In this document: positions 56,331-57,882 of the stretch, piece after piece
Numbering within the stretch: the first letter of the stretch is position 1
How the letters are laid out: each line of letters starts with the position of its first letter
Assembly: GCF_050920415.1 (NCBI RefSeq)
Contig: NZ_CP169309.1
Source: Escherichia coli
GTDB lineage: Bacteria; Pseudomonadota; Gammaproteobacteria; Enterobacterales; Enterobacteriaceae
Length of the DNA: 64,000 bases
Reading direction: 5' to 3' (one strand)
Notes under the pieces: model-generated
Database searches by the model: none
What the model was told of the DNA's origin: nothing
Seen by the model: only the letters and a program-made list of their open reading frames with translations
Position numbers and translations under genes: made by a program

Positions 56331-57882
56331 TTTTGTTTCTCTTCACTCCCTTTCCTGGAAAACAGCAGAGAGGGAGAGTGGGTCAAATAGTTTGATGACG
56401 ACTGGGAAAGAAACGAGAGAAAAGGAAATTTCTCTTTGCCCAGCTCCGTTGGCGATACTGCCGGATAATCCTGCGCCAGTTGTATCGCCGCTTCTGTAGC
56501 CTGCTTCTCTTTCTCTTGCAGATACCCCACCAGGCTAATCTGATACTTACGAATATTTTCGACATAAGCGTAGGCTTCATGCCCACGTGCGTAGCCGTAA
56601 GTCAGCTTGCTGTAATAGGGTTTCTGGCTAAGTAAAGGCAGGCGCTGTTTCACGTCAGCCCAACTGTCAGGATTACCTTTAGTTTTTGCCGTCAGGGCGC
56701 GGGCATCCAGCATATGCGCATAGCCCATATTGTACGCGGCGAGGGCAAACCAGATCCGTTCGTTCTCCGGCACACTTTCCGGCACTTTACTCATCATATC
56801 CTGCAAATAACGCACACCGCCGCTGATGCTCTGTTCGGCATCGGTACGATCCGTAATGCCGAGGCTTTGTGCGGTATTTTTGGTTAACATCATCATGCCA
56901 CGCACACCCGTCGGGGAAGTGGCCTGTGCATCCCAGTGCGATTCCTGATAAGCAATAGCGGCCAGCAAACGCCAGTCAATTTCTTCGGCGTACTTCTCAA
57001 ACAGCGGTTTCAACTGCGGCAGTACGGTATCGACGGCGCGTAAAAACGTGCGCGTATCGACGTAATCAAAATCATCGCCATGCCCCAGGTATTTCTCTTC
57101 AATGCGTGCCAGCGTACCGTCTTCATTCATTTCGTTGAAGAAGTCGAGCAGAGCGGCAGAAAGGGTATTATCGCCATCTAATCGGCTAAACCAGGTCACC
57201 GGCTGTTCGTCGGTGATATCAAGCGCTACAGCGAGTTCCGGGTGAACGCGCTGAAACAGGCTGATGGCGACAGAATCAGCAATGGTGTAATCGAGTTTTC
57301 CTTCGATGACATCTTCCATTAATTCTGCTGAGCTTTTTTGTCGTCTACCTTCCAGCTTAATTCCGGGAATTTTGTTTCTTTCAGGGTCTGGAGATCGTTA
57401 ACCACCACATGGCCTGGTGCGATGGTAAGTTGCTCCGCTGTCAGATTGCCCAGCGTACGCGGGCGATACTGACCCACTTTATAAACCAGTTGTTGTGACA
57501 CGGAATAGTAGGTAGGGCCAGGCTGATAGTTTTTTACCCGCTCACTGTTATAAACCAGTCCTGCAGCCAGCAGATCGGCGTTGCCGTTATCGAGGTCGTC
57601 AAACAGCTGGCTGATATTCTGCCGCACGGTCACTTTCAGTTTTACGCCGAGGTACTCGGCAAACTGTTTCGCCAGTTCGTAATCCAGGCCAAAAGGTTTC
57701 CCGTTGATTTCGTTATAAGTCAGTGGGGTATGAATAGTACTCACACGCAACTCTCCCCGCGCTTGAATGGCGGCGATACGGTTGTCGGCTTTACCAAACC
57801 ATGGAATGGATGGCCAGAGTGCGACCGCGAGCAGCAGTGCCAGAATGCCGATGAACAGATAATTAATCTTTAATTTTTTCAA
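56327..57882 (-). pseudogene. mltF: Membrane-bound lytic murein transglycosylase F, interrupted by a -1 frameshift
   Basis: Two adjacent minus-strand ORFs (57319-57882, 187 aa, and 56327-57319, 330 aa) together match the ~518-aa MltF (SBP-like N-domain + SLT domain); frames switch at the T6 run 57334-57339. Confidence 0.85.

Follow-up and report, generated by a model that had tools for sequence, protein, structure and literature searches.

A one-base deletion splitting mltF in an Escherichia coli genome sequence is probably a residual assembly error

Introduction

Membrane-bound lytic murein transglycosylase F (MltF; YfhD) of E. coli, exemplified by WP_000734229.1 of strain MFDS1022581, is represented by the NCBIfam equivalog NF008112, for which the curated cutoff of 354 bits applies to the whole-protein score. 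It is expected to be encoded by one continuous open reading frame (ORF) as an exported protein in which an N-terminal, SBP_bac_3-like module is followed by an SLT domain carrying the catalytic Glu-Ser motif at the C-terminus. The solved MltF structures span residues ∼30–464, and the N-terminal module covers approximately residues 36–275, as defined by the solved N-terminal fragment 5uh0. The mltF knockout of the Keio collection is viable, without a reported ampicillin or vancomycin phenotype (PMC12318466).

An interrupted mltF can be compared with two known classes of event. One is the ordinary strain-private frameshift pseudogene of E. coli, in which a single-base deletion inactivates a dispensable gene in one strain. 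The other is the residual indel error of long-read assemblies after short-read polishing (PMC6591954; PMC8812927), which is biased towards deletions, is enriched at Dcm/Dam sites and in short runs, remains in multi-copy repeats when the single-copy DNA is already clean and produces false frameshifts. Nanopore consensus errors are dominated by Dcm sites and homopolymers (PMC6591954), and short-read polishers typically fail in repeats, where the reads map to another copy (PMC8812927). In a polishing benchmark on simulated data most tools reached somewhat above Q50 in non-repeat DNA, while some introduced errors (PMC8812927).

Here, we analyse the mltF gene in a stretch of 64 000 nucleotides of E. 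coli DNA (contig NZ_CP169309.1 of assembly GCF_050920415.1), referred to below as the window. A first-pass annotation made from the sequence alone had described this gene as split by a frameshift in a T6/A6 run and had offered two explanations: a real null allele or a sequencing error. These prove to be the correct pair of options. In our assessment the split most likely reflects a residual error of the consensus, and mltF is probably intact and unremarkable in the organism itself.

The mltF locus and its two reading frames

Judged by sequence, domains and position, the gene is an ordinary E. coli mltF with nothing new about it. Its features in the window are as follows.

56327–57882, minus strand: mltF, broken by a 1-nt deletion (one base different from the mltF annotated in NZ_CP169399.1, otherwise identical; NF008112 match)
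57319–57882, minus strand: N-terminal ORF of 187 codons (NF008112 positions 1–185, 214 bits)
56327–57319, minus strand: C-terminal ORF of 330 codons (NF008112 positions 188–481, 517.6 bits; PF01464 SLT)
57317–57321, minus strand: TAATG overlap, in which the premature TAA stop (57321–57319) and the downstream ATG (57319–57317) share one base (read from the sequence)
57333: a single C where relatives have CC (G instead of GG on the coding strand; alignment and base-by-base comparison with MFDS1022581, L010, L011, L012 and L013)
57334–57339: T6 run (A6 on the coding strand), of the same length as in intact genes (alignment)

The two adjacent ORFs are present as the first-pass annotation had described them, and both match NF008112. 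The intact MltF of MFDS1022581 scores 752.8 bits and lies above the NF008112 cutoff; the C-terminal ORF alone retains 517.6 bits, and the N-terminal ORF alone, at 214 bits, falls under it. The N-terminal ORF encodes the signal/anchor segment and about two-thirds of the SBP_bac_3-like module, followed by four out-of-frame codons (AQQN) and the stop. The C-terminal ORF starts at native Met190, whose codon is the ATG within the TAATG overlap, and encodes what remains of the N-module together with the complete SLT catalytic domain; it has neither a signal peptide of its own nor an N-terminal hydrophobic segment. PF00497 (SBP_bac_3) is found on the equivalent N fragment and PF01464 (SLT) on the C fragment, so that both modules of MltF are accounted for, and the ES motif of the SLT domain (Glu314 in full-length numbering) is located within AYQESHW in the C-terminal ORF. 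The protein sequence matches the solved MltF chains 5aa2 and 4owd. As in other E. coli, the gene lies between tadA (55794–56330) and purL (58140–62027). The locus therefore resembles the known E. coli MltF in its DNA except for one base, in the tadA–mltF–purL synteny, in both modules, in the ES motif and in a restored length of 518 amino acids, but differs in that the ORF is broken after codon 183 (the split falls at codon 183/184), a break that is common to no relative.

The missing base

The site was aligned with the intact mltF genes of three complete E. coli genomes (MFDS1022581, EC42405 and HS). All three have A6 followed by GG, whereas the window has A6 followed by a single G. On the coding strand the intact sequence AAAAAAGGCTC becomes AAAAAAGCTC in the window; on the plus strand at 57333 the single-C form reads GAGCTTTTTT and the CC form reads GAGCCTTTTTT, and the aligned site is AAAAAAGGCTCA in intact genes versus AAAAAAGCTCA in the window. 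Since A6 is equally long everywhere and only GG is reduced to G in the window, the lost base is a G on the coding strand (a C on the plus strand), and its loss shifts the reading frame after Lys183. The T6 run at 57334–57339 had thus been recognized correctly, but the proposal that it is under-called by one base does not hold, as it has the wild-type length of six in intact genes too; an under-call of the homopolymer is thereby ruled out as the mechanism, and the base was lost from the neighbouring CC pair. The choice of base also matters for the repair. When the C is put back, the translation is a 518-residue protein identical to the MltF of MFDS1022581. Adding an A to the run, as had been suggested, likewise restores 518 residues, but yields a G184S variant (...KKSSAEL...) that is seen in no relative. 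The lost base, one of the CC pair adjoining T6, lies neither in a run of at least three bases nor in a GATC or CCWGG site, i.e. outside the homopolymer and Dam/Dcm contexts in which long-read errors would be looked for.

A functional frameshift at this site would take one of two forms. Either the ribosome or transcription would slip by −1 on A6 in a programmed manner, giving full-length G184S MltF, or mltF would be turned on and off by phase variation. In E. coli, runs of lysine codons are slippery, and slippage by −1 on AAA AAA would bring translation back into the downstream frame as ...KKSSAEL.... The interruption is not conserved, however: every relative examined has A6GG and one continuous ORF, and the run does not vary in length among them. 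The run is only six bases long, equal to that of the intact genes, and the heptamer is phased in the zero frame as C AAA AAA G, which does not coincide with the phase of the A AAA AAG slippery type, so that there is neither an in-phase slippery heptamer (X XXY YYZ) nor a long repeat tract. With no conservation and an out-of-phase site, programmed frameshifting and phase variation were rejected; we regard either as most improbable.

Indels at the same junction were encountered in two Logan contigs, both of them low-quality and short, with DNA at the site that differs from that of the window. The first (L006; SRR024236) equals the window over 2415 bases except at the site (1259–1260), where it reads GAGTCCTTTTTT, a +1 insertion after GG relative to the intact gene. 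The second (L007; SRR22784437), from another strain with 99.35% identity, has A5GG at 578 together with two more run deletions within 1078 bases, and yields exactly the 187-residue fragment of the window. The DNA allele of the window occurs in neither of the two. Their occurrence in two unrelated read sets suggests that indels are easily miscalled at the A6GG junction.

Distribution of the deletion among relatives

Among 5426 complete RefSeq E. coli genomes, mltF was found in 5425, with the best match in MFDS1022581, which is identical except for the gap. The gene is at least 99% identical in only 16 genomes and ∼96% identical in the rest, which indicates that the window belongs to an unusual, divergent E. 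coli lineage. An identity of ∼96% to most of the 5425 genomes was likewise observed over both mltF and the 24 kb segment 40000–64000, and near-identity over that segment was seen for MFDS1022581 only.

Comparison of 15327–64000 of the window with MFDS1022581 gives three differences outside the rrn operon: substitutions at 40233 and 63533, and the mltF gap. Both substitutions are private to MFDS1022581, the base or residue of the window being found in other relatives. A look-up of the window version of SrmB returned distant strains only (95.5% identity); because it recurs in distant strains, F186 of SrmB is the common state and the difference is private to MFDS1022581. Three further relatives, GCA_015278885.1, AP025751.1 and GL872041.1 (L010, L011 and L013), are identical to the window over 8361 bases (55641–64000) except for the missing C; in MFDS1022581 the same 8361 bases show one substitution in addition to this base. 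At the other end, GCA_002133995.1 differs from 1–20488 of the window by two substitutions and zero indels. Over the ∼58.6 kb of single-copy DNA, the private changes of the window thus amount to one indel and two substitutions.

The deletion is therefore private to one assembly and is absent from near-identical genomes. Complete RefSeq E. coli genomes contain no match of at least 99% to an 80-mer spanning the site, and an exact 38-mer across it is absent from the GTDB species representatives. No NCBI accession corresponds to the 187-residue or the 330-residue fragment, and exact look-ups of the fragments gave only the two Logan contigs described above. N-terminal MltF fragments in the same 90% cluster are mostly contig-end truncations, with two frameshifts at another site, and include no recurrent allele here. 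In contrast, the restored MltF sequence is listed intact in 640 blocks of the protein-position index, and all 24 contigs read that have an identical PurL are shown or grouped with the 518-residue MltF. An intact single-ORF mltF of the same sequence, which the first-pass annotation had named as evidence against its claim, is thus found many times over; this establishes only that the allele is private and does not decide between the two explanations.

Deletions in the rRNA operon

The first-pass annotation had also pointed to indels in an rRNA operon of the same window, and these are present. The features concerned are as follows.

22315–27450, plus strand: rrn operon, holding the other private one-base deletions of the window (difference list; Rfam coordinates)
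22536–24070, plus strand: 16S rRNA (Rfam)
24242–24314, plus strand: tRNA (Rfam)
24502–27401, plus strand: 23S rRNA (Rfam)
27497–27612, plus strand: 5S rRNA (Rfam; the last difference lies upstream of it)
176: private C-to-T substitution, GATC to GATT, giving D338N in RecN (comparison with relatives)

Apart from the mltF gap, every indel relative to MFDS1022581 falls in 22315–27450. Inside the 16S and 23S genes the window has ten deletion events and zero insertions relative to this near-identical strain. Of these ten, five fall within GATC or CCWGG sites, versus an expectation from 2.9% of positions (binomial P = 4e-6); the remaining events comprise short runs, one complex change and one two-base loss. 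In the leader, an A9 run is shortened to A8. When a 331-base piece of the 16S gene with five deletions (23140–23470) was compared with 37 897 16S copies of E. coli, identity did not exceed 98.5%, which shows that the rRNA deletions are private and at otherwise invariant positions. The assembly therefore contains clearly non-biological errors of the same type as the mltF gap, and the earlier lean towards a sequencing error gains weight: the rRNA deletions are private, enriched in GATC/CCWGG and confined to the multi-copy rrn unit.

The single-copy DNA of the window presents a different picture. It contains 407 methylation sites (258 GATC and 149 CCWGG) and 219 runs of at least five bases, of which only one, at 176, differs from relatives; none of the 219 runs has a wrong length. 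The change at 176 may be a miscall at a methylation site that persisted in the single-copy DNA, and no RecN carrying D338N is on record.

Clusters of mismatches and gaps relative to MFDS1022581 were also noted at 24473–24489, in the spacer just before the 23S gene, and at 27427–27450, between the 23S and 5S genes. Possible sources are spacer variants specific to this operon and a consensus that is a chimera of different rrn copies. Separately, in the 16S stretch GGGGAATATTGC (22898–22899 in the window; ∼23888 in the MFDS1022581 sequence, L004) the bases AT are present in the window and missing in MFDS1022581. The version in the window is presumably the canonical 16S sequence, and the assembly of MFDS1022581 seems to have an rRNA error as well.

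Origin of the deletion

The deletion is present in the sequence and private, and the same sequence holds non-biological deletions of the same kind. We infer that the window is a long-read consensus that was polished with short reads and in which the rrn operon was left uncorrected, the platform and the polishing history being part of this reconstruction. Short-read correction would have worked almost everywhere in single-copy DNA and would have failed in the multi-copy rrn operon, leaving deletion errors at Dam/Dcm sites and in short runs; the missing C at 57333, beside T6, would then be one of the few errors that survived polishing, or were introduced by it, in single-copy DNA. Attributing the mltF gap to the process that produced the rRNA deletions is likewise an inference, which the rRNA errors do not prove. 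The deletions of the window share with residual long-read indel errors (PMC6591954; PMC8812927) the deletion bias, the enrichment at Dcm/Dam sites and in short runs, the persistence in multi-copy repeats beside clean single-copy DNA and the false frameshift. The mltF base differs from them in that it belongs to a two-base run in single-copy DNA, with no methylation site, long run or repeat.

An accuracy of Q50 corresponds to ∼0.6 errors per 58.6 kb, so that one surviving or introduced indel in the window is not unexpected. As rough expectations for 58.6 kb, ∼0.2–0.6 residual polishing errors compare with ∼0.05–0.1 real private coding frameshifts. Indels are a small fraction of point mutations, and the latter figure rests on the two private substitutions and on general knowledge of the indel share. 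The resulting odds of error to real mutation are roughly estimated at ∼3–6 to 1.

Several observations weigh against an error. The affected bases are a plain CC pair, which should be easy to polish; this is no textbook nanopore context, and the single-copy DNA is otherwise very clean. Real private mutations may be present at 176 and 10357, in which case a real private deletion is not far-fetched.

The same observations speak for a real, recent and private loss-of-function allele, formed by a spontaneous 1-nt deletion of GG to G after A6. The deletion occurs in otherwise high-accuracy single-copy DNA (0 of 219 runs wrong and 406 of 407 Dam/Dcm sites unchanged), its site is atypical as a context for long-read errors and two other private changes in the window are possibly real mutations. 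E. coli has several redundant lytic transglycosylases, so the loss of one is tolerated, and the viability of the Keio mltF knockout (PMC12318466) indicates the same for a real loss of mltF. However, the allele is found in no other genome or read set, which leaves its inheritance without support, the same sequence demonstrably has deletion errors and, at about Q50 (PMC8812927), the rough expectations given above favour polishing errors over real private frameshifts. Compared with ordinary strain-private frameshift pseudogenes of E. coli, the window shows the same single-base deletion in a dispensable gene of one strain, but the allele here has no independent support and its carrier sequence has proven consensus errors. 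We consider a real allele unlikely, though by no means negligible.

If the deletion were real, translation would end after Lys183 and four foreign residues, inside the N-terminal module. The SLT domain would be encoded only by the downstream ORF from Met190 and, without a hydrophobic segment, would presumably be cytoplasmic, making this a null allele. In its fullest form such a scenario would make the strain a natural mltF knockout in a divergent E. coli lineage, with the truncated N-module exported, the catalytic domain re-initiated at TAATG and stranded in the cytoplasm and a trace of full-length G184S protein produced by rare −1 slippage on A6; this picture appears doubtful. The gap would then add one case to the tolerated losses of redundant, non-essential cell-wall enzymes, and would be of little general interest.

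The case is of importance mainly for quality control. With a residual consensus error as the preferred explanation, the gap taken at face value would create a false pseudogene, which could be read as a natural loss of MltF in surveys of lytic transglycosylases. As a working rule, one-base rRNA deletions in GATC/CCWGG sites flag an assembly, in which private frameshifts are untrustworthy without the reads. A useful by-product of the analysis is this diagnostic pattern, in which deletions at Dam/Dcm sites are restricted to the rrn operon.

Other features of the window

Some further observations were made in comparing the window with its relatives. At ∼15327–15353, on the pheL/raiA side, the alignment to MFDS1022581 breaks; the window and GCA_002133995.1 are without a P2-like prophage here. 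MFDS1022581 (L004, 1–16300) and two other relatives (L014 and L017, 1–5100) carry such a prophage, with its integrase beside pheL. Between raiA and bamD (∼15977–16688) there is an IS4-family transposase remnant, which close relatives share; the annotation of MFDS1022581 marks it as frameshifted. Finally, nadB is broken in a distant strain that is 95.5% identical to the window (GCA_026149425.1/ERR6004619), appearing as ORFs of 353 and 183 amino acids in one assembly and uncalled in the other (L008, 2269–4132; L009, 2525–4147), and the nadB gene of the window (41642–43264) is intact.
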